A stretch of 64,000 nucleotides of DNA from an uncultured Candidatus Saccharibacteria bacterium (GTDB lineage Bacteria > Patescibacteriota > Saccharimonadia > Saccharimonadales > Saccharimonadaceae), in NCBI GenBank assembly GCA_964630185.1, contig CAZVTQ010000003.1:109175-173174 (forward strand), read 5' to 3'. Shown here piece by piece: positions 9,095-26,962 of the stretch (positions are counted from its first letter, which is position 1; every line of letters begins with the position of its first letter). The position numbers and the translations under genes were made by a program. The notes beneath the pieces were generated by a model. The model did not search any database, was not told the DNA's origin, and saw nothing but the letters and a program-made list of their open reading frames with translations.

Positions 9095-9099
9095 GGCAT

Positions 9100-9386: not shown

Positions 9387-9399
9387 AAGTTGGAAGAAT

Positions 9400-10319: not shown

Positions 10320-10348
10320 TTGCAGCCGGCGCAATATGCTGCCATGTG

Positions 10349-11714: not shown

Positions 11715-11839
11715 AATTTTATTTATTATAACAGAGGTAGCGTGAAAAGTAAAAAGGCGCCCCCGAAGGGACGCCTGCGCAGTTTAGGAGTTGCGTCTCC
11801 AATGGTTCATTCTCGACATAAAGAAGAGTGCCATTCCCA

Positions 11840-12184
11840 TCACGTTGCCTCCGCTTCTGTCTCTGCAGTTGAAAGCTTGTCTGCTGCAACTGCGTAGGCA
11901 AAACCACCCGACATCATATGGAATATGATGATTGAGACTACCGTAGCAGTATCAATGTCTCCATCTGTCCGGAAGTGTCCTGCTTGCCATGTATCGAAGT
12001 AATTCCAATACAAGTACAGTCCAATGATCGAAACGATCCAGAGTAGCGGTGTTAGTGTTCTGACGATGATCCGCTGTGGAGTTTCGGGCAATGTTTTGTC
12101 GTAGAACAGTGTTCCCGCCAAGGCAACGAGCAATGGCAGTAGAGCTGTTACGCCCACAAGCACCTTGAGCACAAGTGGTGACAT
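11840..12184 (-). CDS. Hypothetical 3-TM membrane protein
   Basis: 114 aa, three hydrophobic helices. GC-elevated relative to the flanks. No recognisable family. Confidence 0.5.
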   Translation of the reverse strand: MSPLVLKVLVGVTALLPLLVALAGTLFYDKTLPETPQRIIVRTLTPLLWIVSIIGLYLYWNYFDTWQAGHFRTDGDIDTATVVSIIIFHMMSGGFAYAVAADKLSTAETEAEAT

Positions 12185-12202
12185 ATTCAGACCTCCCTCT
12201 CG

Positions 12203-12553
12203 TTACTTACCAGGTGCTGCCACAGGGTTCAGAGTGATTCCTGCGACTACCTGTCTAGTGAGACTGCAGGTACTGCCTGAAGCCTGTAGCACGTATGACG
12301 GTGTGAGGCTTTGTTTACGACCGAGATTTGTCATCTCCGCGTAAGTCTGTTGGTACTCAAGTAGAGAGTTGATATAAATCGATTTCTCCCGATCACCTCT
12401 CTTAAGACAGACAGCAGCAGCTGAACTGTTGACCTTCTTGAGCTTGTCCTTGCCCTCCCCGACTCTGTCCCAGTCTAGGAAGTTGCATCCGGTCAGACTG
12501 AATGCCATCACTAGGCCTATGACAATCGTCAATACGCGAACAGTGTGCCGCAT
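12203..12553 (-). CDS. Hypothetical lipoprotein
   Basis: Start moved to the ATG at 12553 (AAGGA 9 nt upstream). Signal peptide with lipobox SLTGC. TTGACA-N17-CATTAT lies upstream. Confidence 0.55.
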   Translation of the reverse strand: MRHTVRVLTIVIGLVMAFSLTGCNFLDWDRVGEGKDKLKKVNSSAAAVCLKRGDREKSIYINSLLEYQQTYAEMTNLGRKQSLTPSYVLQASGSTCSLTRQVVAGITLNPVAAPGK

Positions 12554-12629
12554 ATTCTCACGTCCTTTCGGGTTGATTAACAAAACGTAAGACTAGGTAT
12601 ATAATGACAAAATATTGTTAATATGTCAA

Positions 12630-13295
12630 CTATACGTCAATTAATCTATATCTACCTTCACCTAAATTGCCTAGTGAAAAATTACCAAATTGTGTACGGT
12701 GAAGCTTTGTAACTGTGTAGCCTAAGCTGCCAAAAGTCCGACGAATTTGTCGGTTGCGACCCTCTTTCATAGTTATTTTGTAGCCTTTTTTGTCGAGTTT
12801 TTCGACTAAAAATTGGCTTACACCATCTTCTAACTGAACGCCGTGGTCCGATATCATCTGTTGGTGCAAAGGTTCGAGCGGTTTGTCTAGTTCTACCTCA
12901 TATATTTTCACCTTTGAAAAGCTTGGGTGTGTCATGCTGTGTGAGAAATCGCCATCATTTGTGAGCAAAATAATACCAGAACTATCTCGATCGAGACGAC
13001 CCACTAGTTTAAGATAATGCATTTCAGGTGGCAGCAGTGAATAAATCGTTGGGCTGTCACCCTGCTTGTGGCGTGAACTGACGTATCCAACAGGTTTGTT
13101 GAGTGCGATATATGCGAGCTTGCTTGTCTTGTTGATACTTTCCCCACTTACTTTAATATCAGAATTTTCATCAATCTGTTGCCCAAGTTGAGCAACACCG
13201 CCATCAACGCTTACTTGTTTTTTCTCAATCAAACTATCGGCTTCACGTCGTGAGATACCTAAAATAAGAGCAATATGTTTATTGAGACGAGTCAT
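12630..13295 (-). CDS. RsuA/RluB-family rRNA pseudouridine synthase (S4 domain plus catalytic domain)
   Basis: N-terminal S4-like segment and catalytic motif VGRLDRDSSGIILLTNDGDF. Confidence 0.85.
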   Translation of the reverse strand: MTRLNKHIALILGISRREADSLIEKKQVSVDGGVAQLGQQIDENSDIKVSGESINKTSKLAYIALNKPVGYVSSRHKQGDSPTIYSLLPPEMHYLKLVGRLDRDSSGIILLTNDGDFSHSMTHPSFSKVKIYEVELDKPLEPLHQQMISDHGVQLEDGVSQFLVEKLDKKGYKITMKEGRNRQIRRTFGSLGYTVTKLHRTQFGNFSLGNLGEGRYRLIDV

Positions 13296-13311
13296 TAGCC
13301 TCCATTATAGC

Positions 13312-14241
13312 CTATAGTGTAGGCGGAGTAAGTGGAGTCTCTGTTGACGCTGTGTCTTCAGATGCTGGTGCAGGAGGTGGAACTGGAGCACTAGGTTCAG
13401 GTACTACTGGCGCAGGAGGTGTTGTAGCCGCAGGTTCGTCTGCGGGAGGTGGCGTTGGTACCGCTGCTGCAGCATCGGCTACAGGAGTTGGTGGTACTGG
13501 TGCATCCATTGAAACAGATCCGGTTGAGTCCATTGGAGGAACGGCAGACGATGCGCCGTCAGGTACATTTTCAACATCTTGGATTGATGATTTAAACTCA
13601 TTGTCGATCAACTCGCCAACATCAACATTACTTACTCGAGGGTTATCTTTCAAAGGCTGTATAACTCGATCGCCTAAGCCGCTAGGTCGTGCGCCTGTAA
13701 ATGGTGCAGTAGGTTGAGGGATGGTGGTTGAAGAAGCAACCTCTGATACAGGCTGATCTGGTGAAGGCGCTGCTGGTGGTGTTGGTGGAATTGCACCGGC
13801 TACTGCTGCTGCAGGATTTGGAGCTGCCGCCGGAACTGCTCCGGGTGCTGCTGGCGCAGGACTTGCTCCAGGTTTGTCAGCAAGAACTTGATGTACTGCT
13901 TTTACAACATCTTCAATACCAACTTGAGATTTCACTAGGTACATATCGGCGCCTAGTTGTTCACCACGCTTGCGTTGTTCGTCACTAGAAAGCGCGGTCA
14001 TCATGATAACTTTGATGTCTTTTGTTTCAGTTGTAGAGCGCAAAATGTCCAGCATGTCGAAACCGCTGATTTTTGGCATCATAACATCGCTTACTATTAG
14101 ATCGGGTCGGTCTTTTATAGCCATAGCTAGGGCTTCTTCACCGTCTCCAGCAGAAACAATGTCATAACCCTCGGCGAGTAGTCTTACTCCGTATATTTCG
14201 CGTAGGCTCTTGTCATCTTCGACAAGCATAATTTTTGTCAT
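13312..14241 (-). CDS. Response regulator: receiver domain plus a Pro/Ala-rich low-complexity tail of about 190 aa
   Basis: Receiver hallmarks VEDD, SDVMMP, MMTALS and KS. No recognisable output domain. The tail is dominated by P, A, V and T. Confidence 0.85.
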   Translation of the reverse strand: MTKIMLVEDDKSLREIYGVRLLAEGYDIVSAGDGEEALAMAIKDRPDLIVSDVMMPKISGFDMLDILRSTTETKDIKVIMMTALSSDEQRKRGEQLGADMYLVKSQVGIEDVVKAVHQVLADKPGASPAPAAPGAVPAAAPNPAAAVAGAIPPTPPAAPSPDQPVSEVASSTTIPQPTAPFTGARPSGLGDRVIQPLKDNPRVSNVDVGELIDNEFKSSIQDVENVPDGASSAVPPMDSTGSVSMDAPVPPTPVADAAAAVPTPPPADEPAATTPPAPVVPEPSAPVPPPAPASEDTASTETPLTPPTL

Positions 14242-14292
14242 ATTACCCCCATTTTAAATGTTACTTTGCAAAAATGCTAGTGCTTTTTTTAT

Positions 14293-16011
14293 TTACATCA
14301 GGTCGGCCGGTGTCGTCTCTATTTTTCGGGTTGCTTCTTCATGTGATAAGCGTACAAATTCTACAAAAAAGGTGCTTCCATCGCCTTGTCGACTCTCGAG
14401 CCATAACCGTCCACCCATTGTCTCTACTAGTCTACGACACAAATACAGACCAAGTCCAGTACCACCTATATCGCGAGTATCGGTATTGTCGACACGATAG
14501 AATTTTTGGAACAAATGCACTTGGTCTTCTTTTGGAATACCAATACCTGTGTCGTGTACTGATAACACTGCTTTGGTTGCGTCTCCAGTAATATCTACAG
14601 TGACATTACCTGTCTTGGTATATTTTATAGCGTTTTCAATAAGGTTGCTTGCAACTTCACGCAGGTGGTCATTATCGACATCAACATAATACACAGGGTT
14701 AAGTGGCCGACCAGCACCACTGGCCTGTACGGTAGGTTTAAATAACAAAACTAGCCCTTTTTCCTTAGCTCTGGTGTCAAACGTACGTACGATCTCACCA
14801 ACAAAACTTACAAGATCGACAACCTTCGGAGTGTTTTTGAGGCGTCCATCCTCTACCCTAGAAATATCAAGTAGATCTTGAAAAAGTCGGCCTAGGTGTT
14901 GGATGCTCTCGTTTGCTTTCAATAAATAGTCACGAGCTTTTGCGTCTATCGTAGCTGTGGCTGGGTTTAAGGCGAGACCAAGATAGCCTTCAATTGTTGC
15001 CACTGGTGTACGCATTTCGTGGCTGGCGGTCGAGATGAATTCGGCTTGTTGTCGCTCCTCTTCCTTTTCGTGGGTAATATCGCGAAATACAATGATAGCT
15101 CCAGCTCCGATCTGCCCGACTGGCGATGCTGAAACAGATATAAGCAACTTTTTGCCAGAGCTGGTTTCTAGCTGTAGGTCATTTGTTGTTATGGGATTGT
15201 TGGTCCTTAGAACTTGCTGAATCGGGTCGGTATTTTCATTTACTACTTCACCGGTTTTGCTGAGTAGCTTTATGACCGATTTATAGTCGAGCTTCAAAGC
15301 ATCCTGCTTTCCCCAGCCGATGATTGACTGAGCTGCTGGGTTAATAAGTTGAATTGTACCCTGTGAGTCCACAGCTACTACTCCGTCGTTGATAGCGTTA
15401 ATTACTATTTCAGATTTGTTGGCAACTTGGCTTAGCTCGCGTACAAGTTCGCTGTAAGCCTTGTCTTTGGCGCGGTCAGGGTGTGATTTGTGATGCCATA
15501 TGAGCCAGCTTGCGAGTATCGGTACCTCATAGGCAAGTAAATAGACTAAAAGCTGTGATTGAATATCAACACTTTTAAATAGAAATATTTCTAGCAGTAG
15601 ATATAGATTAACGGCAATCATGAAGCCGACGAGCATCCTCCAGCCAAATAAGCCAGCGAAAACACTGGCAAGTATCCAAAGAGCGATAAATGGCGAAGTT
15701 ACGGGGTTTGTCAGCACTAGTAGTAGAGCTACGTTTACACAAAGTCCAATGTATACGGCTAAGGTTATTTGCTCTAGTTTTTCTCGTGGCGCAAAAAGAT
15801 ACGCTCCAAAACTTGTTATGGCGACTATAACTGAGGTAATTGCAACTGGCAAGGGCACTATAAAGTTGGCTGTAACAACACTATCGCTCGTAAAATAGCC
15901 AAAAGCAAAAAAGGCAATCAAAAAGAGTGACACAAAGAAAGATATCTCGCATATGCGGCGATACCAAAAAGCTGAAATGGTAAATGTCGACTCGTCCGAG
16001 TTTATCCCCAC
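14293..16011 (-). CDS. Membrane sensor histidine kinase with PAS domain
   Basis: Multi-TM N-terminus, a PAS-like segment, H-box STASHEMRTPV, N box NLIENAIKYT, G boxes DTGIGI and GGTGLGLYL. The start codon is uncertain: the GTG is immediately preceded by GGAGG. Confidence 0.9.
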   Translation of the reverse strand: MGINSDESTFTISAFWYRRICEISFFVSLFLIAFFAFGYFTSDSVVTANFIVPLPVAITSVIVAITSFGAYLFAPREKLEQITLAVYIGLCVNVALLLVLTNPVTSPFIALWILASVFAGLFGWRMLVGFMIAVNLYLLLEIFLFKSVDIQSQLLVYLLAYEVPILASWLIWHHKSHPDRAKDKAYSELVRELSQVANKSEIVINAINDGVVAVDSQGTIQLINPAAQSIIGWGKQDALKLDYKSVIKLLSKTGEVVNENTDPIQQVLRTNNPITTNDLQLETSSGKKLLISVSASPVGQIGAGAIIVFRDITHEKEEERQQAEFISTASHEMRTPVATIEGYLGLALNPATATIDAKARDYLLKANESIQHLGRLFQDLLDISRVEDGRLKNTPKVVDLVSFVGEIVRTFDTRAKEKGLVLLFKPTVQASGAGRPLNPVYYVDVDNDHLREVASNLIENAIKYTKTGNVTVDITGDATKAVLSVHDTGIGIPKEDQVHLFQKFYRVDNTDTRDIGGTGLGLYLCRRLVETMGGRLWLESRQGDGSTFFVEFVRLSHEEATRKIETTPADLM

Positions 16012-16082
16012 CCTCCTCTTTGTTATTGTTAATGATTATTATCGCAAAAATAAGAGCTGTTGTATAGAGGAGTTTTGTGAAT

Positions 16083-16129
16083 AAAAAAATGGGGCGACCT
16101 CCTGTTCGAAATGAACAAGAGATCGCCCC
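16083..16129 (-). terminator. Intrinsic terminator downstream of TerD
   Basis: On the minus strand: GGGGCGATCTCTTGTTCA-TTTCG-AACAGGAGGTCGCCCC followed by ATTTTTTT. Confidence 0.7.
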
Positions 16130-16182
16130 GTGGGCTGATTACTACGCTGTAAAAGCGATGTAATCGGTTCAGTCAACCGTGA

Positions 16183-16767
16183 CTAGGCGGCTACGCCAAC
16201 ACCGTGGTCGGCGCAGAGGCCTTCCAGTCCGTTGTTGTACCCGTCGCCGACAGCCTTGAACTTCCACTCGCCGTCCTTGCGGTACAGCTTGCCGAAAATG
16301 ACGGCTGTTTCGAGTGAGTAGTCATCGCTGAGGTCGAAGCGAGCCAGCTCGGCTCCGGACTGATCGCAGACGCGCATGAACGCGTTCTGGACACCGCCGA
16401 AGTTCTGGTTGCGCGACGCGGCGTCGTAGATGGTGACAGCGACAATGATCTCCACGATCGACAGCGGCAAATTTGCCAGGTCGATGTTGATTGATTCGTC
16501 GTCGCCGTCGCCGGCACCGGTGCGGTTGTCGCCTGTGTGATGGATAGTGCCGTCGGGGCTGTCGAAGTTGTCGTAAAAGACAAACCAGCCCTCACCCGGC
16601 ACCTTGCCGGAGGCGTCGACCGCAAATACCGAAGCATCGAGGTCGAATTCGGCACCAGCTGTGCCTCCCTTTTGGTCCCAGCCGAGACCGACTGTGACAT
16701 TGGAGAGCTGGCCGCCAGCTTCCTTTGTGAGGCTGACGTTGCCTCCCTTTTGCAGTGAAACGGGCAT
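16183..16767 (-). CDS. terD: TerD-family stress protein
   Basis: VSLQKGGNVSLTK...VGLGWD...FDLDASVF...GDNRTGAGDGDDESINIDL...YNNGLEGL is the canonical TerD/TerZ/TerE Ca-binding fold signature. Start set at the ATG at 16767 (AAAGGAAAC upstream). Confidence 0.9.
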   Translation of the reverse strand: MPVSLQKGGNVSLTKEAGGQLSNVTVGLGWDQKGGTAGAEFDLDASVFAVDASGKVPGEGWFVFYDNFDSPDGTIHHTGDNRTGAGDGDDESINIDLANLPLSIVEIIVAVTIYDAASRNQNFGGVQNAFMRVCDQSGAELARFDLSDDYSLETAVIFGKLYRKDGEWKFKAVGDGYNNGLEGLCADHGVGVAA

Positions 16768-16810
16768 GAGCACGTTTCCTTTCTGGAGTGTGTACTCCGA
16801 TTGTTGGATA

Positions 16811-17962
16811 TTACTCTTTCCCTCGTTGTCCGAGAAGATCGAGAATATGGGTTAGACGTCCGGTTCCCTTCATTTCCAGCTGAAGCTTTCCATTGCCGTC
16901 GTTAGACGGATAGAAAGCAATCAATTGACCTGGTTTGAAGGTTCGCTCGCCTATTTGAACTGGGTAGCGCACTAGAAATTGAGACTGCCATGGAATGTTT
17001 CCATATCCACGACCATGTCGCCTTCTAATGCGATCTGTGCGAAGTGCCTCTTCCAGTTGGTTTGACAACTGAACTGCGGCTGCCGGATTGGCAACCGAGG
17101 TCCAAAAGTCAGTCAACTGTTGAGTGCTCTCATTGCTCTTTTGCTTGATCTCCTTTTGCAAGGGATCTGTAAGTAGCCACGGGTCAAAACCAAGCTCGAG
17201 TTCGTTCAAGGTCGGCTGACGAGTCAGCGCTTCCTTGTAGACGTTCCCAAGTAGGTATGGTGCCCACAGCTTCTGGCCAATCGCAAACACAAGTTCTGCA
17301 ATTGGTACTGCCTTTTTGAGTACTTGCACCGAGTTATTCGTGGTTGTTGTCGCTTCCCAGCTTTTGCTGAGTTGCTTAAACACCACGAGCTGCGGTTGCA
17401 ACTGTTTGACGACCTCTTGGTGTAAAGCTTGCATACGAGACGGAATCCCGTAGTATTCGATCACCGCAAGGTCATCTTGTACCTGCTCGATGACGCAGCG
17501 ACATGCGCACCACACACCCGCAAAGTCTTCCAGCCTTAGTTTCAAGTCCGGAAATTCTGCTAGTTGCGCGTTGAGCGGTCGTGTGCCCATGCTTGACTCG
17601 GCAGTTGCTTGCACAGAGTGCAGCATTGCTTCGTCGGCATAGTCACACAGTGCATCACCTTGTTCATATGCCTTTTTGGGCAATGTCTCTTCCGTTTGAT
17701 AGGATTCGACAACACCGTCTAGAAAGCATGTACTCATCTGCCACAACATTGCTGCGAGCCAGTGGCTGTGCAGAAGTGTCAGGGCTGATATCGGCAGTTC
17801 CCAGATAGCCGAGTTGGCAGTGCTCAAGCCTTGTATCTGCGCATCAAATGCGTCGACAGCTTGAGTTTGCCCCTCGACAGTTCGTGTGAGAAGTTCGACA
17901 ACCTGTGGGTCACCGATTGTGCTAGGCCCTAAACGGCCGTACACCTGGGCGATCCCAGACAT
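16811..17962 (-). CDS. Hypothetical protein (383 aa) co-oriented with and immediately upstream of TerD
   Basis: Long clean ORF with AAAAGGAG upstream of the ATG. No family recognised. 43-nt gap to terD. Confidence 0.6.
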   Translation of the reverse strand: MSGIAQVYGRLGPSTIGDPQVVELLTRTVEGQTQAVDAFDAQIQGLSTANSAIWELPISALTLLHSHWLAAMLWQMSTCFLDGVVESYQTEETLPKKAYEQGDALCDYADEAMLHSVQATAESSMGTRPLNAQLAEFPDLKLRLEDFAGVWCACRCVIEQVQDDLAVIEYYGIPSRMQALHQEVVKQLQPQLVVFKQLSKSWEATTTTNNSVQVLKKAVPIAELVFAIGQKLWAPYLLGNVYKEALTRQPTLNELELGFDPWLLTDPLQKEIKQKSNESTQQLTDFWTSVANPAAAVQLSNQLEEALRTDRIRRRHGRGYGNIPWQSQFLVRYPVQIGERTFKPGQLIAFYPSNDGNGKLQLEMKGTGRLTHILDLLGQRGKE

Positions 17963-18047
17963 GTCTTACTCCTTTTGGAAGTGGGTTGACTGAATTGTTA
18001 AGTTGCCCCTCAAGGTTTTGAAAATCTCCACCGAGAAGCTGTATAAA

Positions 18048-18076
18048 ATTGTATCATATAAAAATATACTATGCAA
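18048..18076 (-). promoter_or_regulatory. Candidate promoter TTGCAT-N17-TACAAT for the 383-aa-ORF/terD operon
   Basis: The -35 is at 18076..18071 and the -10 at 18053..18048, in an AT-rich divergent intergenic region. Confidence 0.4.
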
Positions 18077-18101
18077 TAACTTTATTAAAGATACAAAGGC
18101 A

Positions 18102-18130
18102 TTGACTAGTATTGTTTTTTCAATTACTAT
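18102..18130 (+). promoter_or_regulatory. Candidate promoter TTGACT-N17-TACTAT for the vWA gene
   Basis: The -35 is at 18102-18107 and the -10 at 18125-18130. Confidence 0.4.
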
Positions 18131-18202
18131 AGTATGGTTGACAGAAAGTGTCAAGGTAGCTTACAAAAGGCAATCAATCTAGTCACCCAGGAGGTGTCTA
18201 AT

Positions 18203-18997
18203 ATGGGCGTTTCGCTCAACAAAGTACAGGACCAAGCTCCGCACATGGTCGATCTGGTCAAAAAAGGAGGTGTGGTTCTCGAAAAGAAGGGCATCAACCC
18301 AGACCTGTACAAGGCAGCGGTGATCGCAACTCTCGATCACTCAGGCTCTGCAGCCGGGCTGTACGACAGGGGGCTGATGCAGGAGGTTGCTGACATTGCG
18401 TTCGCAGCCGGACTGTTGTTCGACGATGACGGCTCAGTGCCCGTATCGTTGTTCGACAATACCATCAATCCTCTCGGTGAGATGGATCTGGCGAACTGTC
18501 GCAGCTTCGTTTCGCAGCACACTCGTTACCGCTACGGTGGTACGAGTTACAAGACTGCACTCGAGTGGATCGTTGACGAGGCCGGTTTCGGCGGAATCAA
18601 CCTCGGTGGTTCTAGCGGTGGAGGAGGTTTCTTCCGCAGCAAGAGCAGTGGTGGCAACCTCGAAGTCAAGGCAACTGCCGAATACCCGGTCTACGCCATT
18701 TTCGTCACGGACGGCGAACCTCAAGATGGTGCGGCCGCAGCGGAGTACCTTCGCCTGATGAGTCAGCTGCCGATTTTCGTGCAGTTCATCGGCGTCGGTC
18801 CTCACTCGTTCTCTTTCCTGAAGGGGCTCGATGACATGGATGGTCGCCTGATCGACAACGCGAACTTCTTCGATGCGAAGGACGCCGGCAACGATCAGGG
18901 CAAGATGCTCGAGCTGATGCTTGGGGAATTCCCGGACTACTACACGCTCGCGCGTCAGCAGGGACTGATCAGCCAGGGAGCCGCAGTCGTCAGCTAA
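18203..18997 (+). CDS. vWA domain protein of the TerF-C-terminal (vWA-TerF-like) type
   Basis: Start set at the ATG at 18203 (CAGGAGG upstream). MIDAS-like LDHSGSA, TDGEP, and a Gly-rich linker. Located in a Ter cluster. Confidence 0.75.
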   Translation: MGVSLNKVQDQAPHMVDLVKKGGVVLEKKGINPDLYKAAVIATLDHSGSAAGLYDRGLMQEVADIAFAAGLLFDDDGSVPVSLFDNTINPLGEMDLANCRSFVSQHTRYRYGGTSYKTALEWIVDEAGFGGINLGGSSGGGGFFRSKSSGGNLEVKATAEYPVYAIFVTDGEPQDGAAAAEYLRLMSQLPIFVQFIGVGPHSFSFLKGLDDMDGRLIDNANFFDAKDAGNDQGKMLELMLGEFPDYYTLARQQGLISQGAAVVS

Positions 18998-19003
18998 ACA
19001 ATT

Positions 19004-19042
19004 GGGACTGTGCGGATGGATTTTTATCCTCCGTGCAGTCCC
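19004..19042 (+). terminator. Hairpin after the vWA gene
   Basis: GGGACTGTGCGGATGGA-TTTTT-ATCCTCCGTGCAGTCCC. No clear T-run follows. Confidence 0.4.
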
Positions 19043-19215
19043 ATATATAATTTCTAGGTATTTTTATTCGTCACTAAGTGGCGCTTTTTTATGTTTTCTA
19101 AACTTTCGCCGTTTACGGCTCATCAGTATAGCTTAAAATCTATAGAGTTTAGCGGGAGTGCGTGCTGGATTGCACGCACTCCCTAAGGGTAAAGCACCCC
19201 TGGGCTGTGGTTTGA

Positions 19216-20538
19216 CTAGGCGTTCAGCGCCGGCGTTGCCGGAACGGACGTGGTGATCTGCGGCGGCGTTGTTGCTGCCTCGATGACCTGGTCGATGACC
19301 ACTTCGTCGATCTTCCTGTGAGTGTTCGCCAGCTGCTGCTGGGCAGCCACCATGGCCGCATCCAGTTCGTCTCGCTTGCGTTCGCCTTCCTGGTACTCGC
19401 GCAGAACACCGTCTGCAGCCTGTGCCAACGAGTCGGCAACGACTGAGAGTGTTTCGGGTGTGAACGTCGGAGCCTGGATGGCGCGTTCGATGGCGGGCAT
19501 CGTCTCCGCACCAGCCTTGAAGAACTCCTGCGTCCACTGGTTGGCAGTTGCCTGAACCGCCTCACTCATCTTGCCGGCGTCCTGGGTTTGCACCATCATG
19601 CGCCACTGCACCAGCAATGACTTCATGGTGGGAACAGTGACGTTGACCATCTCACCGAGCTTGGCCGACATGCCGAGGTCCAGATTGCGCATCATGCGCG
19701 TCTGAGGAGCAGTCGCCCATGCGATGAACAGTCGTCCCTTGTACTCGCCGATCTTGGCCTTCATGCTCGTGATCAGGTCGGCACGCTTTTGGCGCTCTTC
19801 CTGACCGCGATCACCGAGGTTGGCGTCGCCGACCTCGATGGAGTCCGCGTCCTTGGCAGCTACATCGACGATCATCTCCATGACGGCGATGACGTAGATG
19901 AGCTTGGCGATCTCCTTCTCGTTTTCCGTGTAGATCGTGTCGAGGAAAGCGACGTTGCGGGACATGTCCGCCTGGCTTCCTGCCAGGTCGGCCGAGATCC
20001 TGTCGAGCTGCTTCTCGATGTCGGTGAAATCCGACCGAAGCACCTCGATGAAGGTACGGCCACGACGGAAGAATCCCTTGACCTTGTTGGCACCGTTGGT
20101 CCACTTTTCGTAGTCCTTCCGAACCTTGGGGTCGCTCATGTCGTACTTCTTCTTGATGCCGAGCATCGTGACGTTGAGCTCTTTCATGAGCCCGTTGAGC
20201 TCAGGGATCTTGGTGGGCTCCACCTCATTGAGGAGGCGCTCGACAAGAACATTGACGTCCTTGAGGGCATCTGTGCCGTAGTACATGATGACCTGAGTGT
20301 CGGTCAGCATCTCCCTGTAGATCTTCTCTGCCTCTGCCTCTGCCTGCCTCTTGGTTTCACCCTCGAGCAGGTTCTTGCAGACGAGACCCTGGCGGCCTTC
20401 CGATGTCTTGGCAATGACTGCCAGACTTGTCTCTGCGGGCCCCTCTACAGGTACCGCAGTCGCCTCAAGCACAGATGACTGAGCAGGAGGAGTTGCAGTT
20501 GCTACCGGAGCAGCAATCTGAATGTTTGAGTCCGTCAT
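19216..20538 (-). CDS. telA: TelA/KlaA-family toxic-anion-resistance protein
   Basis: 440 aa, all-helical. The region YYGTDALKDVNVLVERLLNEV...LNGLMKELN and the overall length match TelA (YceH-like) proteins. A hairpin (GGGAGTGCGTGC/GCACGCACTCCC) follows at about 19152-19185. Confidence 0.8.
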   Translation of the reverse strand: MTDSNIQIAAPVATATPPAQSSVLEATAVPVEGPAETSLAVIAKTSEGRQGLVCKNLLEGETKRQAEAEAEKIYREMLTDTQVIMYYGTDALKDVNVLVERLLNEVEPTKIPELNGLMKELNVTMLGIKKKYDMSDPKVRKDYEKWTNGANKVKGFFRRGRTFIEVLRSDFTDIEKQLDRISADLAGSQADMSRNVAFLDTIYTENEKEIAKLIYVIAVMEMIVDVAAKDADSIEVGDANLGDRGQEERQKRADLITSMKAKIGEYKGRLFIAWATAPQTRMMRNLDLGMSAKLGEMVNVTVPTMKSLLVQWRMMVQTQDAGKMSEAVQATANQWTQEFFKAGAETMPAIERAIQAPTFTPETLSVVADSLAQAADGVLREYQEGERKRDELDAAMVAAQQQLANTHRKIDEVVIDQVIEAATTPPQITTSVPATPALNA

Positions 20539-20568
20539 GTGCGGACCTCCTTCTTCGTGTTGTCTGAT

Positions 20569-21015
20569 TTACAGATGTTGCGCAGACAGAATCTGCGTGT
20601 CTACTTTGAAGTTGATCAGGTCGGCCTTTTTAGACGCCCCTGCTCCACCTCTGAACAACTGTCGTGCAAAACCTTGCACGGACTGCTGCCCTCGGTCCAG
20701 AAATTCCCTCGCGTCTTCATAGGCGTCCGGGTTGTTCTGGATTGTCACGTATTCATCGATGACACGCAAAACTGTTTCCAGTTGTTTTTGAAACGTTGCT
20801 ACTTCGGCGCCTCCAGGAGGACCATTGGAGCCACGTTTTGACAAACAACTTTCACCGTCTTGCGCTATTCGCGTCAGCACTACTTTGATTCGAGGATTGT
20901 TGACACGAAGTCGTGTCATACCCACCTGCTCGAGAAGATCCCGAACATGATCGATGGAGTATTTTTCCTCCCCAACTTCCGGTAGATCAGGTGTTTGCCT
21001 GTCAAACCATGCCAC
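20569..21015 (-). CDS. Hypothetical protein (148 aa) immediately upstream of telA
   Basis: Same strand as telA with a 30-nt gap. No TM segment. No family recognised. Confidence 0.5.
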   Translation of the reverse strand: MAWFDRQTPDLPEVGEEKYSIDHVRDLLEQVGMTRLRVNNPRIKVVLTRIAQDGESCLSKRGSNGPPGGAEVATFQKQLETVLRVIDEYVTIQNNPDAYEDAREFLDRGQQSVQGFARQLFRGGAGASKKADLINFKVDTQILSAQHL

Positions 21016-21259
21016 TTGAGCCTCCCTTCAACCTTGGGCTTTGTAAGTGTATGTTAATTTGCTGGTTGAACTTAGCTTATAATAACATTTTGAAATAGAT
21101 GAGTCAATACTTTGACTACTGTAAAATATGTTAATTTTATTGTTGTCTAACACTTGTAATATATGTAGTTTTATGATATTATAAACAAACTGTACAGATA
21201 AGTTCTGTACGCACCTTAACAGTGTGAGTAAACTTCTACCCTCCTAACAAAGGACATGA

Positions 21260-22309
21260 ATGAAGCATTACAGGATCGATATTGCAATTACAGCGATTGT
21301 TTTCGCTGCGATTGCGGTTTTCGTTGAACCGGCCGCAATGATCCCTCTGGGGATTTTGGCTGTGCTGGAGGTCTCGTTGTCCTTTGACAACGCGGTCGTC
21401 AACGCCAGCGTGCTCAAGCACATGAGTGAATGGTGGCAGAAGATCTTCATGACGGTCGGCATCTTGATTGCTGTTGCTGGAATGAGGCTTTTGTTTCCTA
21501 TCCTCATCGTTGTTGTCACGGCACACCTCAGTTTTTCGGAGGTTGTAAGCCTGGCGCTCAACGATGTCGACACCTATGCGGCTCGCTTGCATGATGCACA
21601 TGCAGAAATCGCCATGCTCGGCGGCATTTTCCTGATGATGGTCTTTTTGAACTTCATGTTTGAAGATCGAGAGACTAAATGGCTGGGACCCCTCGAAAGG
21701 GTTTTGGCTCGGGCTGGCCGCTTCGACACGCTTTCAGCCGCGATCGCATTGATTGTGATCTTGGTTATCAGTGCGTTGGTGCCGAAGGCTGAACAGGTGC
21801 CTGTGCTTGTCACGGGTGTCATCAGTCTTGCGATGTATCTGGTTCTCGACATCTTCGCCTCTGCTTTCGAGCAAGAGGATGAAGACCTCGACGAAGGATC
21901 GTCGCTTGTACCTCGAATTGGCATGGCAGCATTTGCGTTGTTCATGTATCTCGAGTTCCAGGATGCGTCGTTCAGTTTTGACGGCGTTACAGGGGCGTTC
22001 GCTATCACCAACAACGTTGTGTTGATTGCGGCTGGTCTCGGTATCGGAGCGCTTTTTGTGCGGTCTATGACCGTTCATTTGCTCCGTACCAATAAGCTCA
22101 CTGAGTTCAAGTATCTTGAGCACGGTGCGCACTGGGCGATTGGCACGCTTTCGGCCTGTCTGCTTGCCGGCGTCTTCATCAATATCTCTGAGTACATCAC
22201 GGGTCTCATCGGTGTTTCTTTCATCGGTGCGGCTATTTGGCACTCAAAGAGGGAGACAAAGCAGGAAGAAGCTCAGACTCTCGCTACCTCACAGGTAGCG
22301 ACCGAGTAG
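21260..22309 (+). CDS. TerC-superfamily integral membrane protein (DUF475-like)
   Basis: About 9 TM segments. Signature LEVSLSFDNAVVNASVL and a second repeat FSFDGVTGAFAITNN. A hairpin (CTTCGGGTG...CACCCGAAG) follows. Confidence 0.75.
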   Translation: MKHYRIDIAITAIVFAAIAVFVEPAAMIPLGILAVLEVSLSFDNAVVNASVLKHMSEWWQKIFMTVGILIAVAGMRLLFPILIVVVTAHLSFSEVVSLALNDVDTYAARLHDAHAEIAMLGGIFLMMVFLNFMFEDRETKWLGPLERVLARAGRFDTLSAAIALIVILVISALVPKAEQVPVLVTGVISLAMYLVLDIFASAFEQEDEDLDEGSSLVPRIGMAAFALFMYLEFQDASFSFDGVTGAFAITNNVVLIAAGLGIGALFVRSMTVHLLRTNKLTEFKYLEHGAHWAIGTLSACLLAGVFINISEYITGLIGVSFIGAAIWHSKRETKQEEAQTLATSQVATE

Positions 22310-22423
22310 TAGCTCCGCTGCGTTAAACCTTCGGGTGGCTTTGCTTAGGCAGAGTCACCCGAAGTTACGCTTTACTCACACTGTTAATTTATTTCACTGA
22401 ACTATAACCAATAAGAAAACTAT

Positions 22424-23269
22424 ATGAATATTCCAAGGCTTTCGACAATTGAAATTACTCCCCTCTCTGACGACGAGTTTATTCATGCTGATGGAAGCAC
22501 TTTTGATGTTATTGAGTATAGTTTGATGAAATATGGTGACTCATACACTGCATGGCAGTATGGACAAGAGGTAGCTGAAGCTGCAATCGAACAGACCAGC
22601 GAACAACTTTCTCAGCCAGATGTGTTGATAACTGTTCCAGCATGTGTATATTCGCCAAAACCAGCTTTTGCCATTGCTCGAGCTATGGCTGTAGGTGTTA
22701 ATGAATGGCGAATTGAGCAAGGACTTCAACCTGCAAAAATGCTACGAATGTACAGCGAGGCTATGGGCGACCCAAACTATGCTCAGTCAAACTTAGAAGA
22801 TCGCCAAAAAGATAGATTTGGACAAGTGAAACAGCGACATATTCCACCAAGTCTTGTGAAAGACGCCGTTATATTTGCAGTCGATGACTGTGTCATAACA
22901 GGTTCAACTGAGCAGTCTCAATACGAAATACTAGCACCACATGGTCCAGCTGAATTTATTTCTGCGCCGGCAATTGTGGTTGATCCTGAACAGGCCAAGC
23001 TTTTCCCGGGCATTGAGCATGTTATGAATACCGCAGCAAACCCTAGTTTAGAAACTGTTGCTGAGCTTATCGACAAAGATACATTCATGCTTAATTCACG
23101 TGTTCTAAAACTGATTGTTGGTCACGAAGACAAAGAAGAACTAGAAACTTTTCTAGATGACTGTTCCTGGTCGCTTATCAGTGAAATGTATGAAGCATGC
23201 ACCAACTCAACACTAGAGTTCGTGGAAGAATATGCCGAGTCAATAGTTTTATTGCAAAACAGGCTGTAA
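22424..23269 (+). CDS. Ter-cluster-type phosphoribosyltransferase-fold protein (paralog 1)
   Basis: PRPP-loop-like AVIFAVDDCVITGSTEQ. N-terminal Y-KYGD motif (YSLMKYGDS) shared with the next two ORFs. Confidence 0.65.
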   Translation: MNIPRLSTIEITPLSDDEFIHADGSTFDVIEYSLMKYGDSYTAWQYGQEVAEAAIEQTSEQLSQPDVLITVPACVYSPKPAFAIARAMAVGVNEWRIEQGLQPAKMLRMYSEAMGDPNYAQSNLEDRQKDRFGQVKQRHIPPSLVKDAVIFAVDDCVITGSTEQSQYEILAPHGPAEFISAPAIVVDPEQAKLFPGIEHVMNTAANPSLETVAELIDKDTFMLNSRVLKLIVGHEDKEELETFLDDCSWSLISEMYEACTNSTLEFVEEYAESIVLLQNRL

Positions 23270-24133
23270 CTAAGCAGCAATAGCTGCTGCTGTCGTCCGC
23301 TTGTTGTACGCATCTCTGAAGGCTGCAACACCCTCTTTGTAAGCATCCATAGATCCAAGCTCATCGCCCTCTATATACTCTCGAATAGTTTCGAGTGTTT
23401 CTTCATTTATGCTCTGACAAAATGCTTGTATTTCGCTTTCGCTACTCGAAACTAACATTTTACATATACGTGCGTTTGGCACGAAATTGCCGGTGTCATG
23501 TGAAAGCTGTGCTACAGATGACAATGAGCGTATTGCACAATGATTAATCGCAGATTCTACGCGTGGGTCGGTGCTGTTTTCTTCAACGGTCAGTATGTAG
23601 GCATATGTAAGAGGTATTTCAGATAAGCCTGAACGGATAAATAGCCTATGCAAAAGGCGCTCATGTGAGCCAGTTACCAGTATGTCATCGAGCGCTATGA
23701 TGCCGTCTACTGACATGTCAAAATCGTAAGGCATTTGCAGCCCGTTGCGCTCCATGATGTTCTCACGCTCCTCAACACTCATGAGTGCGTAGTCGCCTTG
23801 AGCTAGGTTTTTACGATCTATTTTGAAAGGTTCAAAATTTGCTTGTGGCACAGTTTCTTGCAGTCTTTGTACGAACGAGCCTAACATCGAGTTTGATGCA
23901 GGTGGTGCAACTTTATAGGCAGACGAAGTTACTGCATAGTTCCCGTCCTCTACGATGCTTTGTTTCGCTATTTTGTCGGCTAATGCTTCGCCATATCTCG
24001 AAGCAACATCGCCGTCGCCATATTTAAACCGACTATACTCAACTGGACATACGTCACCGTCTAGTGTTGTTGGCTGTCCATGGGCAGTACCCTGTACTTG
24101 GTCTAGCCACACTCTTTTCACTTCACCAGTCAT
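23270..24133 (-). CDS. Ter-cluster-type phosphoribosyltransferase-fold protein (paralog 2)
   Basis: GIIALDDILVTGSHER and YSRFKYGDGD. Confidence 0.65.
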   Translation of the reverse strand: MTGEVKRVWLDQVQGTAHGQPTTLDGDVCPVEYSRFKYGDGDVASRYGEALADKIAKQSIVEDGNYAVTSSAYKVAPPASNSMLGSFVQRLQETVPQANFEPFKIDRKNLAQGDYALMSVEERENIMERNGLQMPYDFDMSVDGIIALDDILVTGSHERLLHRLFIRSGLSEIPLTYAYILTVEENSTDPRVESAINHCAIRSLSSVAQLSHDTGNFVPNARICKMLVSSSESEIQAFCQSINEETLETIREYIEGDELGSMDAYKEGVAAFRDAYNKRTTAAAIAA

Positions 24134-24135
24134 TA

Positions 24136-25008
24136 TTAATTACCTCGCTTTAGCAATACGTGCTGAGCTACCTGTTGATAGCCTGTTTTATACTTTTGTA
24201 AAAAATCCGGTCCGGTAGCCACTGCTCCACGTGATACAGCCTCTATCTGTTCGTTCGACATTACATTCATTAACTGATCTAAATCTTCACTTGAAGCACT
24301 CAAAATCATTTTCATAGTACGTATATTTAAGTCGAAACCATCGCTACTTGCAATAAGTTCAATCAAATCACCTGCTTTTGAAATTGCAGTTTCGTTAATA
24401 TCTGACTCTACATGTGGTGAGTTATAAGCTTGGCTGCTGTCAAAAACGGCTACGTAGCCTAGTAAAACAGATGTTGGTGTTTGTTTTTCTGCACGCAGAA
24501 CTTCCAAAATACGTCTTTCGGCGCCGCCGGATATACGAATATCATCAAGCACTACAACTGGACGATCGTCGACTCGTTTACCTCTAAGACTGAAGTCTAT
24601 TGCCGCAAGTTCTGCTTCTCGGTCTTCCACTGAAGCTTTTGAATAGTCGGTATTAGTGACATTTTCCTTGTGTACCTTGAATATTTCTACTGGTTCTAAG
24701 TCAGCTTGAACCCTTATGCGGTTAACAAGGTCAACGCAGTACTGAGAAAGATATCCGCAAGCTGGCTGTACGACTTTGTATGCAACTAAAAATGCTGGCG
24801 GCGTCTCATCTTCGAAAATGTGAGGAGCTTCTTGGTGCGCGGCTAGTGCTATCTCTTCGGCAAAGTGTTTTGTATCTTTACGACTACCGTATTTCATACG
24901 GCTGTATGCTGCTGCATCAAATTCTTTACCGTTTGCATCGACTATGTCCCCGTCAGAGGCATATTCAAGATGATGAACAGCTACAGTTTGCTTCATAGTA
25001 TCGATCAT
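24136..25008 (-). CDS. Ter-cluster-type phosphoribosyltransferase-fold protein (paralog 3)
   Basis: PVVVLDDIRISGGAER and YSRMKYGSRKD. Confidence 0.65.
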   Translation of the reverse strand: MIDTMKQTVAVHHLEYASDGDIVDANGKEFDAAAYSRMKYGSRKDTKHFAEEIALAAHQEAPHIFEDETPPAFLVAYKVVQPACGYLSQYCVDLVNRIRVQADLEPVEIFKVHKENVTNTDYSKASVEDREAELAAIDFSLRGKRVDDRPVVVLDDIRISGGAERRILEVLRAEKQTPTSVLLGYVAVFDSSQAYNSPHVESDINETAISKAGDLIELIASSDGFDLNIRTMKMILSASSEDLDQLMNVMSNEQIEAVSRGAVATGPDFLQKYKTGYQQVAQHVLLKRGN

Positions 25009-25715
25009 TACAACAAACCTTTCTCGTGCGCTTCGGCTATAGTTTTAGCTGTTACTATGTCAGTTTGTACAGGCTCGGAGGCTATATGTACTGCTTTCAT
25101 TCCTACCGCGTTCGCCCCGTGGTAATCAGCAGTTAAGTTGTCGCCAACGTGGGTAATTTCGCTGAACTCTCTATCTAAAAGTGTTGCCATATGTCCAAAT
25201 ATTTTAGGGTGTGGCTTTGCTGCTCCAACTTCATTTGAAAATACTTGTAGGTTTGTTTTATCTAAGATACCAATTGATTTCAAAGCTTGGCGCATGTATT
25301 CACCATTTATAAGGCCGGTGTTGCTTGTGAGAACAATGTCACGTTCAGCGGCAATATTGTCTAGAGTTTCAATAAGGTCTGGCTCTTGATGTTCTGGCAA
25401 GTAGTCCAAAAATAGTCCCTGTATACCCTCGGCGAGCTCGGCAATAGCTTTCTGCCCTAACTTTACTCCTAGTGCATCGCAGAGGAATTGCAATCTCTCG
25501 TTTGGTCCAAATTGCAAACCTAGTTCATCGGCTGTATCGTCACAGAGCTTATCGACTTTGTGAAGCGCTTCACCGGTTTCAGTTACATCGGTACCAAAAC
25601 GATTCGCAACAAAACTATTACGCATTGATTTGTGCGAAGGATTTCTAGCTATCAACGTCTTCCAGACATCGAGGCTGACCGCTTGTTTTGTTACTTCTTT
25701 ACTCATATAAAACAA
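25008..25715 (-). CDS. HAD-superfamily hydrolase with atypical motif I
   Basis: Motif II LTSNTG; motif IV HVGDNLTADYHGANAVGM. Motif I reads SLDVWKT, so the second Asp of DxDxT is replaced by Trp. The stop overlaps the start of PRTase paralog 3. Confidence 0.65.
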   Translation of the reverse strand: MFYMSKEVTKQAVSLDVWKTLIARNPSHKSMRNSFVANRFGTDVTETGEALHKVDKLCDDTADELGLQFGPNERLQFLCDALGVKLGQKAIAELAEGIQGLFLDYLPEHQEPDLIETLDNIAAERDIVLTSNTGLINGEYMRQALKSIGILDKTNLQVFSNEVGAAKPHPKIFGHMATLLDREFSEITHVGDNLTADYHGANAVGMKAVHIASEPVQTDIVTAKTIAEAHEKGLL

Positions 25716-25772
25716 TAATTCTTAATTATTTGAACTATAATACCATAAATATGAAGTAAAATCAATAACTAC

Positions 25773-26222
25773 CTAAAGAGTTGACGAGTGTAATTCTTGT
25801 TCTAGTTCAAGAAGTTCTTCGTCGTCTGGTTCAAGAGTTTCATCTTCGCTCACTATTTCATCGACAGGCTCCATTTCGTCCTCGTTTGGAAAAGGAAAAA
25901 CAATATCAAATAGCCCCATAGCGTGCGCCCTGTGCATGATATCAATCTCGTCTATTTCTTCATGTCTCCGTGTAGGTCCTGTACCCCATAACATTCGTAC
26001 AGATTTTACAAAATCGAGTGGTTCAGTTTTGTGACGGGCAATATCAAGAAGTATTCCCTCTCGGCGTAAACCATGTGAAAAAGCCTTAGCCACTAGGTAT
26101 CGAGCAGCTACAGCACTCGCCCCTTCGAGGCTTAGTTCTACGTCGGGTTTCTCAGGATCAACAAAAAATACTTCTGCAAGCTCTATCGGTTCGTTTGTTT
26201 TTTGCTCAATTACCTCAGTCAT
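25773..26222 (-). CDS. Hypothetical protein with a very acidic C-terminus (149 aa), first gene of the HAD-PRTase transcription unit
   Basis: Clean ORF. The C-terminus is DEMEPVDEIVSEDETLEPDDEELLELEQE. No family recognised. Confidence 0.5.
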   Translation of the reverse strand: MTEVIEQKTNEPIELAEVFFVDPEKPDVELSLEGASAVAARYLVAKAFSHGLRREGILLDIARHKTEPLDFVKSVRMLWGTGPTRRHEEIDEIDIMHRAHAMGLFDIVFPFPNEDEMEPVDEIVSEDETLEPDDEELLELEQELHSSTL

Positions 26223-26352
26223 ATTAGATGTACTCTACCATGATTATGTACTTTACTCAAGAAGTCATATGTTTTACAAAATGAAAAAGGCGTCACAATG
26301 TTATGAGATCGAAATCTCACACATGTGACGCCTTTGCACTTTCTTGCTCGGC

Positions 26353-26745
26353 TTATGCCTTGTAGCCTCGGTAATTCCATCCCCAAGGCCACTTGATGTT
26401 CACTGCTCCGTCTGGCCGTAGCCAAACGTAGAAATGATCGCCCAATCCTGCGCCGACATCAATGATGTTGTTGACGCCGTCAAGCTCTGCGGGATCTAGG
26501 TCGCCGCACCAGCTGTCGCAATTGAAGCGCACAGAACTATCACCGTCGTAGGTAATCTTCCATGTTTCTGTCACCTTTCCGACTTGATGGGTTAAGACAA
26601 ATGTCTCGCCAGCGGGAAGCATCACCTTATTGTCGCCAATAACGTGAACACCCTGGGTACTTCTGGGGAGACTACTCTCCACCAAAAAGACAATCCCGAT
26701 GATCGCCGCAATGACTGCGCAAACGGCAAGTACGACCTTGAGCAT
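26353..26745 (-). CDS. Hypothetical small secreted or membrane-anchored protein
   Basis: N-terminal signal/anchor MLKVVLAVCAVIAAIIGIVFLV. GC-elevated. Promoter cassette upstream at 26881-26903. Confidence 0.5.
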   Translation of the reverse strand: MLKVVLAVCAVIAAIIGIVFLVESSLPRSTQGVHVIGDNKVMLPAGETFVLTHQVGKVTETWKITYDGDSSVRFNCDSWCGDLDPAELDGVNNIIDVGAGLGDHFYVWLRPDGAVNIKWPWGWNYRGYKA

Positions 26746-26962
26746 TTCTTCTCCTCGTTTTAGTTGAACAATTCCGCTCTATATAGTCACGAATATCGTT
26801 CCTGAATATGTAGAGCGGTTGTTCCGAGGATAGTGTTTTGAAAGTGCATGCATTCTCAGAGTGACTCGATGAGAATACTAAGTATTATTATAGCATAAAT
26901 ATATAAAAATGTAAAACCCGCCCTCCTAGCATAAGTTCTACACTAGGTAAGGACGGGGTTTG

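Follow-up and report, generated by a model that had tools for sequence, protein, structure and literature searches.

The 64,000-nucleotide stretch of DNA analysed here (the window; positions 109,175 to 173,174 of contig CAZVTQ010000003.1, equivalent to C3:109175-173174) belongs to an uncultured Candidatus Saccharibacteria bacterium (genome G000, assembly GCA_964630185.1 of 124 contigs) and carries an 11.8-kb accessory Ter-type gene island at 16.0–27.8 kb, between a histidine kinase (HK) gene and the 3′ end of a tRNA-Glu(CUC) gene. Four genes of the island (TerD, a vWA-TerF-like gene, TelA and a DUF475/TerC-family gene, together the core) are rich in G+C and stand beside phosphoribosyltransferase (PRTase) and HAD-family hydrolase genes of ordinary composition, a mosaic confirmed as the strongest compositional signal in the genome. 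A sequence-only reading of the window had taken this mosaic for a relatively recent acquisition of TerD, vWA and TelA from a high-GC donor, with Actinobacteria as the obvious candidate. We instead favour, with moderate confidence, an old import that has been recombined between species within lineages specific to Saccharibacteria and the Candidate Phyla Radiation (CPR), and whose GC-rich codons are retained by some force.

Compositional contrast and codon usage

The four large contigs of the assembly (824 kb, GC 0.42) make up the Saccharibacteria chromosome of ~0.82 Mb. Across these main contigs (GC 0.423; standard deviation (sd) of 5-kb windows 0.021), 5-kb GC reaches 0.50 or more in two regions only, and the maximum of 0.536, ~5.4 sd over the mean, lies in the window at 14.6–23.6 kb. 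At 1-kb resolution, GC is 0.51–0.57 at 16–21 kb vs ~0.40–0.49 in the rest of the window. Ranked by GC content at third codon positions (GC3) among the 830 open reading frames (ORFs) called on the main contigs (mean 0.364, sd 0.079), TelA (19216–20538, minus strand; GC3 0.757, z=5.0) is first, TerD (16183–16773, minus; 0.756, z=5.0) second, vWA (18203–18997, plus; 0.67–0.69) fourth and DUF475/TerC (21260–22309, plus; 0.620) thirteenth, and the z-scores of the core, 3.2–5.0, are of the atypical kind expected of a genomic island. Two genes without a known family that lie among them are intermediate, namely orf383 (16811–17962, minus; GC3 0.518, 94th percentile) and orf148 (20569–21015, minus; 0.477, 91st percentile), while PRTase 1 (PRT1; 22424–23269, plus; 0.323), PRTase 2 (23270–24133, minus; 0.396), PRTase 3 (24136–25008, minus; 0.313) and the HAD-family gene (25008–25715, minus; 0.373) are ordinary for the genome. 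The compositional description given by the sequence-only reading therefore stands: its six hand counts of GC in 60-nucleotide lines (38, 41, 29, 28, 26 and 23) were each reproduced exactly, terD, vWA and telA are far GC-richer than their surroundings, spurious overlapping ORFs open on both strands (e.g. 19789–20478 on the plus strand, antisense to TelA), and the PRTase/HAD half is native-like.

In codon usage, the core correlates with the high-GC contigs of the assembly at r=0.85, with ribosomal-protein and EF-Tu genes at 0.36 and with the genome bulk at 0.21; the corresponding values for the PRTase/HAD genes are -0.06, 0.79 and 0.96. The core genes use AAG at a frequency of 0.92, CAG at 0.82, GAG at 0.61, CGC at 0.48 and CTC+CTG at 0.71, and the ribosomal-protein and EF-Tu genes prefer AAA (0.65), CAA (0.71), GAA (0.75), CGT (0.62) and T-ending four-fold codons, the sole preference common to both sets being NNC at pyrimidine-ending two-fold codons. 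Highly expressed genes are low in GC3 (EF-Tu 0.353, S12 0.333, L14 0.309, RpoB/C 0.32; ribosomal-protein operon 0.23–0.40), and ordinary expression-linked codon bias was rejected as a source of the core pattern because these genes combine low GC3 with other codons. A foreign-looking core thus stands beside a native-looking PRTase half, and the codon usage of the core is indeed of the foreign, high-GC type, as had been proposed. Both U34 and C34 tRNAs for Lys, Gln and Glu are encoded in the genome.

Persistence of the GC-rich codons

Six versions of the island in the genus have a closely similar GC3 profile, with TerD at 0.71–0.77, vWA at 0.67–0.73, TelA at 0.68–0.76, DUF475 at 0.59–0.63, orf383 at 0.50–0.52, orf148 at 0.44–0.48 and the PRTases at 0.31–0.40, despite allele classes 50–75% apart in protein sequence and saturated at synonymous sites. 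By codon class, the core in these versions holds 0.73–0.81 NNC and 0.71–0.79 NNG at two-fold sites and 0.53–0.57 G+C at four-fold sites, and AAG (0.76–0.92) and CAG (0.74–0.90) predominate in the core genes of all six.

The split between core and PRTase genes recurs in the same cluster order in three distant Saccharibacteria: core GC3 is 0.89–0.92 and HAD/PRTase GC3 0.31–0.34 in G063, 0.78–0.86 and 0.50–0.52 in SMAG_U6093, and 0.91 (DUF475) and 0.28–0.36 in STL-PAT14, the exception being G028, in which all genes are high. The two halves of the cluster, core and PRTase, have diverged between lineages to a similar extent, and TelA exceeds its neighbours' median GC3 in 12 of 12 CPR loci. The recurrence of the split in one cluster order tells against reading a foreign and a native half as a signal of origin. 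GC3 richness as a general property of TerD was also considered and rejected, TerD being not enriched in two metagenome-assembled genomes (MAGs) of low or moderate GC from outside the CPR, one of Campylobacteraceae and one of Planctomycetaceae.

The direction of change was estimated from third-position synonymous changes among G000, L019 and L021, polarised by three-taxon parsimony on the two shorter branches per gene. The core showed 78 GC-to-AT and 48 AT-to-GC changes (implied equilibrium GC3 0.59; 162 vs 109 on all three branches), orf383 and orf148 together 28 and 29 (0.50), and the PRTase/HAD genes 84 and 113 (0.40). GC-to-AT changes are hence 62% of those in the core vs the 81% expected for neutral decay to the genome value of 0.36 (p=1e-6). 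Taken with at least six syntenic versions, saturated divergence and a distribution that requires one change on the flank-gene tree (below), this retention of GC contradicts a "relatively recent" acquisition.

Exchange of alleles between species

Compared with contigs that carry the P0002 TerD allele, the proportion of differing synonymous sites (pS) in G000 is 0.62–0.69 in six flank genes (protein identity 82–97%), 0.22–0.37 in TerD, orf383, vWA, TelA and orf148 (88–93%) and 0.44–0.57 in the PRTases and HAD (83–91%), and the swapping of alleles between species is thus more recent than the species split. Affinities differ from gene to gene: DUF475 is 93% identical to that of L021 and 71% identical to those of L019, G003 and G006, TerD is 88% identical to that of L019 and 75% to that of L021, and orf383 is 90% identical to that of G003, where its neighbours are at 51–74% and the flanking HK at 93%. 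Nucleotide identity changes in steps at gene borders; against L019, for example, it drops from 0.91 to 0.68 in the DNA between orf148 and DUF475. Together, the discordant alleles and border steps indicate an old, diverged pool of alleles exchanged between species in gene-sized tracts. G000 differs from G003 and G006 at 52–77% protein identity and pS 0.51–0.68 in the cluster; synonymous sites of the flanks are saturated between ter-positive species (pS 0.71–0.78), and the ter alleles are older, with nonsynonymous divergence (dN) of up to 0.42.

Distribution and insertion site

Of 61 related genomes, 5 have TerD (PF02342), namely G000, G003 and G006 of the same genus and G028 and G033 of other genera of the family; elsewhere in the order, 24 other families were sampled and no TerD was found. 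A sample of 400 other genomes from across the phylum yielded no member of the TelA subfamily of the window. G003 and G006 carry the cluster at the same site beside the same HK gene, as do contigs L018/L019, L021 and L108, and the island is therefore syntenic at one site in at least six versions within the genus; the same mosaic arrangement is seen in five independent assemblies. The HK gene itself (14293–16011, minus; Pfam HisKA, HATPase_c and PAS; GC3 0.391), which forms the left flank, is conserved across the 9 genomes of the genus (83–95% identity).

Empty sites occur in G001, G005, G007 and G008, where HK is followed after 0.08–4 kb by tRNA-Glu(CUC) and a homologue of window gene 29126; the most compact order is that of G005, with HK, 77 bp, tRNA-Glu, 38 bp and the gene 29126 homologue. 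This spacing in congeners delimits the island to about 16.0–27.8 kb of the window. The comparison with sister genomes that had been proposed earlier thus finds the cluster missing in four congeneric species and in nearly all other genera sampled. In an unrooted tree of HK, RR, RluA and Der (1506 columns), ter-positive genomes fall on one side and empty-site genomes on the other, and the island was accordingly gained once or lost once and is now carried by one subclade. Its TelA subfamily being found in 0 of the 400 phylum genomes, gain seems more likely than loss; the unrooted tree is compatible with both.

The 3′ end of tRNA-Glu(CUC) (27828–27903, minus; ARAGORN) points toward the island and forms its right boundary, an arrangement typical of tRNA-adjacent insertion. 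No att-like or tRNA-derived repeat was found near HK and no integrase domain among the island proteins, and a classical integrative island was rejected on these grounds.

The gap between HK and tRNA-Glu(CUC), at 16012–27827 in the window, differs in every species examined, from 77 bp in G005 to ~12–14 kb in the ter-positive genomes, and in G001 (L101, positions 8440-12400) it holds ~4 kb of other cargo; the site behaves as an insertion hotspot. On the far side of the tRNA, the window carries a 337-aa gene of no known family (28010–29023) between tRNA-Glu and the conserved gene 29126, which is absent there in G005 (38-bp spacing) and represents a second, separate insertion.

Gene phylogenies and the source of the island

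TelA has 40 detectable relatives among 5.8 billion proteins, the sole named one belonging to Saccharimonadaceae. Relatives for a TelA tree were gathered with two peptide patterns over 185,579 species genomes, which yielded 72 loci, 14 of them CPR and 58 actinobacterial. The CPR loci (36–60% identity) come from Saccharibacteria, Levybacteria, Collierbacteria and one "Patescibacteria group", and include three small-genome MAGs labelled Gammaproteobacteria or Nanoarchaeia; the actinobacterial loci, mainly of Micromonosporaceae and Propionibacteriaceae, are at 28–39% identity. The unrooted tree separates 49 CPR or metagenome rows from 26 actinobacterial rows with a split support of 100. Within the former, the TelA of the window falls in a 7-row genus clade (support 98), and its sister clade (95) includes L024, from a Saccharibacterium genome of 55–59% GC. 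The solitary actinobacterial TelA genes belong to the same TelA subfamily, have the search motifs in common with it and form the sister group in the tree, but at 28–39% identity they lack an orf148-like partner, TerD, vWA and PRTases within 6 kb.

Best named matches of TerD are to Kitasatospora and Streptomyces (60–63%), with Proteobacteria at 60–61%. In an unrooted TerD tree, the genus clade (95/93) nests within a 16-row Saccharibacteria-type clade (100/97) that includes Saccharimonadia G063 and branches among actinobacterial-type, not proteobacterial, TerDs. The TerDs of G028 and G033 lie elsewhere in the tree, and joining them with the genus clade was rejected by the approximately unbiased (AU) test (p=0.0003); with a GC3 of 0.96 they are probably separate, younger imports. 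For vWA, 96 relatives range from 88% down to 40% identity and those named are all Saccharibacteria, beyond which the nearest are Saccharibacillus (39%) and Actinomycetales (34–35%). No PRTase relatives outside Saccharibacteria were found in a scan limited by its peptide patterns to 7 loci. The vWA alignment scan was likewise limited by its patterns to 7 loci, and a locus search with a single TerD protein yielded 4 loci only.

A direct actinobacterial donor finds no support in these trees, given a CPR-only TelA clade (support 100) at 28–39% identity to Actinobacteria, a Saccharibacteria-type TerD clade and vWA relatives named only as Saccharibacteria. The broader actinobacterial link suspected earlier fares better in one respect, the nearest relatives outside the CPR being actinobacterial for TelA and actinobacterial-type for TerD; the combined affinities of TelA, TerD, vWA and the PRTases leave such a link plausible only in the distant past. 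Most likely, another Saccharibacterium was the island's proximate source.

G028 carries a whole Ter cluster of its own (L011, G028:C4:296883-316882, at 9000-20000), comprising TerD, vWA, DUF475, HAD and PRTases at GC3 0.76–0.96. It lies at a contig end with flanks of GC3 0.42–0.47, has a TerD that groups among actinobacterial-type TerDs, and looks like a separate, much younger acquisition. The MAGs L028 (OZ246414.1), L037 and L031, labelled Gammaproteobacteria (one a 915-kb chromosome) or Nanoarchaeia, carry CPR-type TelA modules in low-GC flanks, and a Levybacteria MAG has almost the same TelA as the "Nanoarchaeia" one, which suggests that the taxonomic labels are wrong or the transfer recent.

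Explanations for the retained GC

According to the reading we favour, the island would have entered the genus from another Saccharibacterium, in keeping with the sister TelA clade in a genome of 55–59% GC, and its ultimate, much earlier source may have been actinobacterial. The core genes would since have been losing GC slowly toward a gene-specific plateau, at a GC3 of ~0.6 vs ~0.4 in the PRTase/HAD genes 1–4 kb away. The retaining force would most likely be selection on synonymous codons, strongest at two-fold sites, which fits because the bias is stronger there than at four-fold sites; alternatively, GC-biased gene conversion tied to frequent recombination at the locus may act. A gene-conversion hotspot is consistent with the exchange documented above (cluster pS 0.22–0.37 vs flanks 0.62–0.69, with allele mosaics).

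Several points weigh against this reading. A hotspot should raise GC uniformly, yet intergenic DNA is at 0.32–0.35 GC and orf148 at a GC3 of ~0.45. The GC-to-AT excess of the core over parity is itself significant (p=0.01), and some amelioration is therefore under way. Parsimony was applied to recombining alleles, and imported tracts would push the counts to symmetry without selection. A single ancient import followed by equal decay time would likewise leave all descendants at the same GC3. Elapsed time is known only as "at or near saturation", which leaves some probability to a slow neutral decay from a GC3 of ~0.9, and the four-fold sites (0.53–0.57) lie barely above the prediction for slow neutral decay. 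No donor was found. Finally, the trees are unrooted, and the actinobacterial sister of TelA may be an artefact of the pattern search.

In a rather unlikely account, one old import from a high-GC Saccharibacterium has ameliorated neutrally and incompletely, with no special force, from a starting GC3 of ~0.9 in the core and ~0.7 in its partners, the PRTase/HAD genes being already resident. The genus profile does resemble a scaled-down version of that in G061/G063 (TelA 0.90 to 0.72, orf148 0.70 to 0.46, orf383 0.73 to 0.51), the core does show an excess of GC-to-AT over AT-to-GC changes (78 vs 48), and the equal GC3 of all descendants is as expected after equal decay time. That excess is nevertheless far under the neutral 81%, saturation should have left under about a quarter of the initial GC excess, two-fold sites remain at 0.71–0.81, and this history would have had to repeat itself in the three other deep lineages that show the split.

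Repeated re-import of the core from a high-GC reservoir (high-GC Saccharibacteria or a mobile element), each incoming copy replacing the resident one by homologous recombination before amelioration and the PRTase/HAD genes staying resident, is unlikely. Such Saccharibacteria exist and hold the sister TelA clade, the module is rare and patchy in the CPR, Levybacteria and "Nanoarchaeia" MAGs have near-identical TelA, gene-sized replacement is demonstrated at the locus, and G063 sets a GC3 of 0.9 beside 0.32. All known TelA and TerD genes of the genus clade, however, sit in low-GC genus-type clusters with the same flanks, orf383 and orf148 hold a GC3 of 0.45–0.52 in all versions with balanced substitutions (28 vs 29) within the swapped tract, and between distant lineages the core has diverged about as much as the PRTase half.

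A more specific proposal, which we offer as speculative and of low probability, is that the core genes are kept by selection on a separate "codon dialect" of G/C-ending two-fold codons, above all AAG, CAG and GAG, decoded by the C34 tRNAs Lys(CUU), Gln(CUG) and Glu(CUC). The reduced genome still encodes all three, Glu(CUC) at the island edge. Under this proposal the core genes would have to be translated under the very stress they answer, for example a thiol or oxidative stress that would cripple U34 modification of the tRNAs reading AAA, CAA and GAA. If true, the dialect would represent a codon-biased stress regulon in a CPR bacterium and would explain GC3 values of 0.7–0.9 and 0.3 in adjacent genes across deep lineages.

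It is very improbable that TerD, vWA and TelA came relatively recently and directly from an actinobacterial host and then captured native AT-rich promoters. This reading draws on the high-GC-type codon usage, on the best named TerD matches (Kitasatospora and Streptomyces, 60–63%), on Actinobacteria being the only group outside the CPR found with the TelA subfamily of the window, and on the actinobacterial-type TerDs of G028/G033 (GC3 0.96), which make it probable that transfers of this kind happen in the family. Against it stand the 28–39% identity of TelA to Actinobacteria across a branch with support 100, a TerD that is as close to Proteobacteria (60–61%) and sits in a Saccharibacteria-type clade, actinobacterial TelA genes that stand alone with no TerD, vWA or PRTases within 6 kb, an island syntenic in six versions with saturated divergence, and the AU rejection of a grouping of the genus TerDs with those of G028/G033 (p=0.0003). 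A chimeric contig of Saccharibacteria and high-GC DNA from the same sample deserves next to no credence: the assembly does hold ~168 kb of small contigs above 55% GC, but gene order, flanks and GC3 profile are alike in five independent assemblies and the mosaic is therefore not an assembly chimera, AT-rich promoters and intermediate-GC genes are interleaved with the GC-rich ones, and the whole assembly has one TerD only.

Gene content and promoters of the island

The island displays the defining features of a Ter cluster, with TerD, a TerC-family gene, TelA and a vWA-TerF-like gene occurring together and linked to PRTase and HAD genes. TerD matches PF02342 over positions 1–187 of 187 (E=4.4e-73), and its start is probably at 16767 because the database copy has 194 aa; an intrinsic-terminator-like hairpin lies 3′ of it (16091–16129, minus; 17-bp stem with 10 GC pairs, then a T run). 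orf383 encodes 383 aa without a Pfam match, is kept in 6 of 6 genus versions, has homologues in G063 (46% identity) and G061 (33%), and is apparently co-transcribed with TerD. vWA (PF10138, E=1e-37) has an open frame from 18134, 23 codons 5′ of 18203; its start is probably 18203, given that five orthologues align from a first methionine at that position and that a plus-strand promoter-like site ends at 18130. TelA (PF05816, E=2e-25) is preceded upstream by orf148, a partner of 148 aa with no Pfam match, and the pairing of TelA with an orf148-like gene is kept in 9 CPR loci. The DUF475/TerC-family gene encodes a membrane protein (PF04332, E=6e-107; PF03741), and all matches to PF04332/PF03741, PF05816 and PF10138 are above curated cut-offs. 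The three PRTases match PF15610 and are ComF-like by Pfam; PRT1 occurs in G000, L019 and L021, while G003, G006 and L108 lack it and have two PRTases each. The HAD-family gene (PF00702, PF13419) is followed by three small genes of 149, 130 and 224 aa (25773–27637, minus), without significant Pfam match and inside the segment missing at empty sites. From the family names, the cluster is predicted to serve a stress response, putatively including tellurite, phage or chemical resistance.

The divergent intergenic regions orf383/vWA (17963–18202; 34.6% GC over 17963–18199) and orf148/DUF475 (21016–21259, 31.6% GC), the latter also the breakpoint vs L019, are AT-rich, as had been described from the sequence, and hold the best sigma-70-like matches of the region. 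The former carries TTGACA-17-TATAGT on the minus strand (18154–18126; 11 of 12 positions matching) and TTGACT-17-TACTAT on the plus strand (18102–18130), and the latter TTGACT-17-TATTAT (21107–21079, minus) and TTGTAA-17-TATTAT (21154–21182, plus), both with the TG of an extended -10. A sigma-70-like scan gave 10 sites vs 4.6 ± 2.0 in shuffles.

Other GC-rich sequences in the assembly

The sole other main-contig region with a 5-kb GC of 0.50 or more, C1:90001-96250, lies outside the window; its two paralogous genes, each of 375 aa and without a Pfam match, have GC3 values of 0.59 and 0.64. That this region is a moved part of the G003/G006 island was considered and rejected, as there is no homology to the 375-aa gene beside the ter cluster of G003. 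Also outside the window, at C2:136080-136766 (minus), a solitary 228-aa gene with a GC3 of 0.751 (rank 3) among neighbours at 0.32–0.40 has no Pfam match but weakly resembles TerD (28% over 99 aa, E=0.002). Of the 61 related genomes, G000 and G003 alone carry it (89% identity), and this confinement makes it a better candidate for recent import.

Of the 120 small contigs (C5–C124), 104 exceed 55% GC and together amount to 168 kb. The largest small contigs encode phage-like proteins (primase/helicase-like, terminase-like, a 1180-aa tape-measure-like and tail-fibre-like), and the high-GC ones are probably not part of the Saccharibacteria chromosome. No TerD was found in the small high-GC contigs, the assembly having one in total, and these phage-like contigs proved of no use as a clue to the host's identity.

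Relation to known systems

Ter systems are membrane-linked stress or chemical-defence responses, accompanied by PRTase/HAD genes that make a nucleoside-like product. Anantharaman, Iyer and Aravind reportedly described in 2012 Ter clusters that join TerD, TerC, TelA and vWA to a PRTase-HAD "nucleoside-like metabolite" module. The cluster of the window resembles these in uniting TerD, a vWA-TerF-like gene, TelA, a TerC-family (DUF475) gene, ComF-like PRTases and HAD. It differs in that no TerB, TerZ/A/E/F paralogues or ATP-grasp were detected in it, in its two family-less partners (383 and 148 aa) kept in CPR versions, in a host genome of ~0.82 Mb, and in the contrast of a GC-rich core with a biosynthetic half of native composition. 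No literature on Ter clusters or compositional islands in Saccharibacteria was found.

With tRNA-adjacent islands, the window island has in common atypical GC3 and codons, a position on the tRNA 3′ side, presence or absence among congeners and variable cargo at the site, but it lacks an integrase and an att repeat. For compositionally atypical islands, Lawrence and Ochman are said to have set out an amelioration model in 1997, from which the present case departs in that the atypical composition outlasts synonymous saturation and the substitutions are far from neutral decay. GC-biased gene conversion in recombining bacterial genes was reportedly described by Lassalle et al. in 2015. Consistent with such a process, the GC3-rich genes of the window are those with direct evidence of recent exchange between species; unlike it, the effect is gene-specific within one tract (orf148, at 0.45, is flanked by TelA at 0.75 and by DUF475 at 0.62), intergenic DNA remains at 32–35% GC, and the bias is strongest at two-fold codons. 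The unusual feature is that, within a single conserved cluster, so sharp a split in GC3 persists and recurs.

Implications

Atypical GC3 is routinely read as recent transfer and the level of GC as a clue to the donor. Here the strongest outliers of a genome are old residents of a CPR-specific gene pool, reshuffled and near steady in composition. For annotation, a story of genes stolen from an actinobacterial host gives way to an accessory Ter island that adjoins a tRNA gene and characterises one subclade of the genus. The island also offers a natural contrast, genes 1–4 kb apart with implied equilibrium GC3 of ~0.6 vs ~0.4, replicated in several lineages and usable for testing whether selection at synonymous sites or biased gene conversion acts in very small bacterial genomes.

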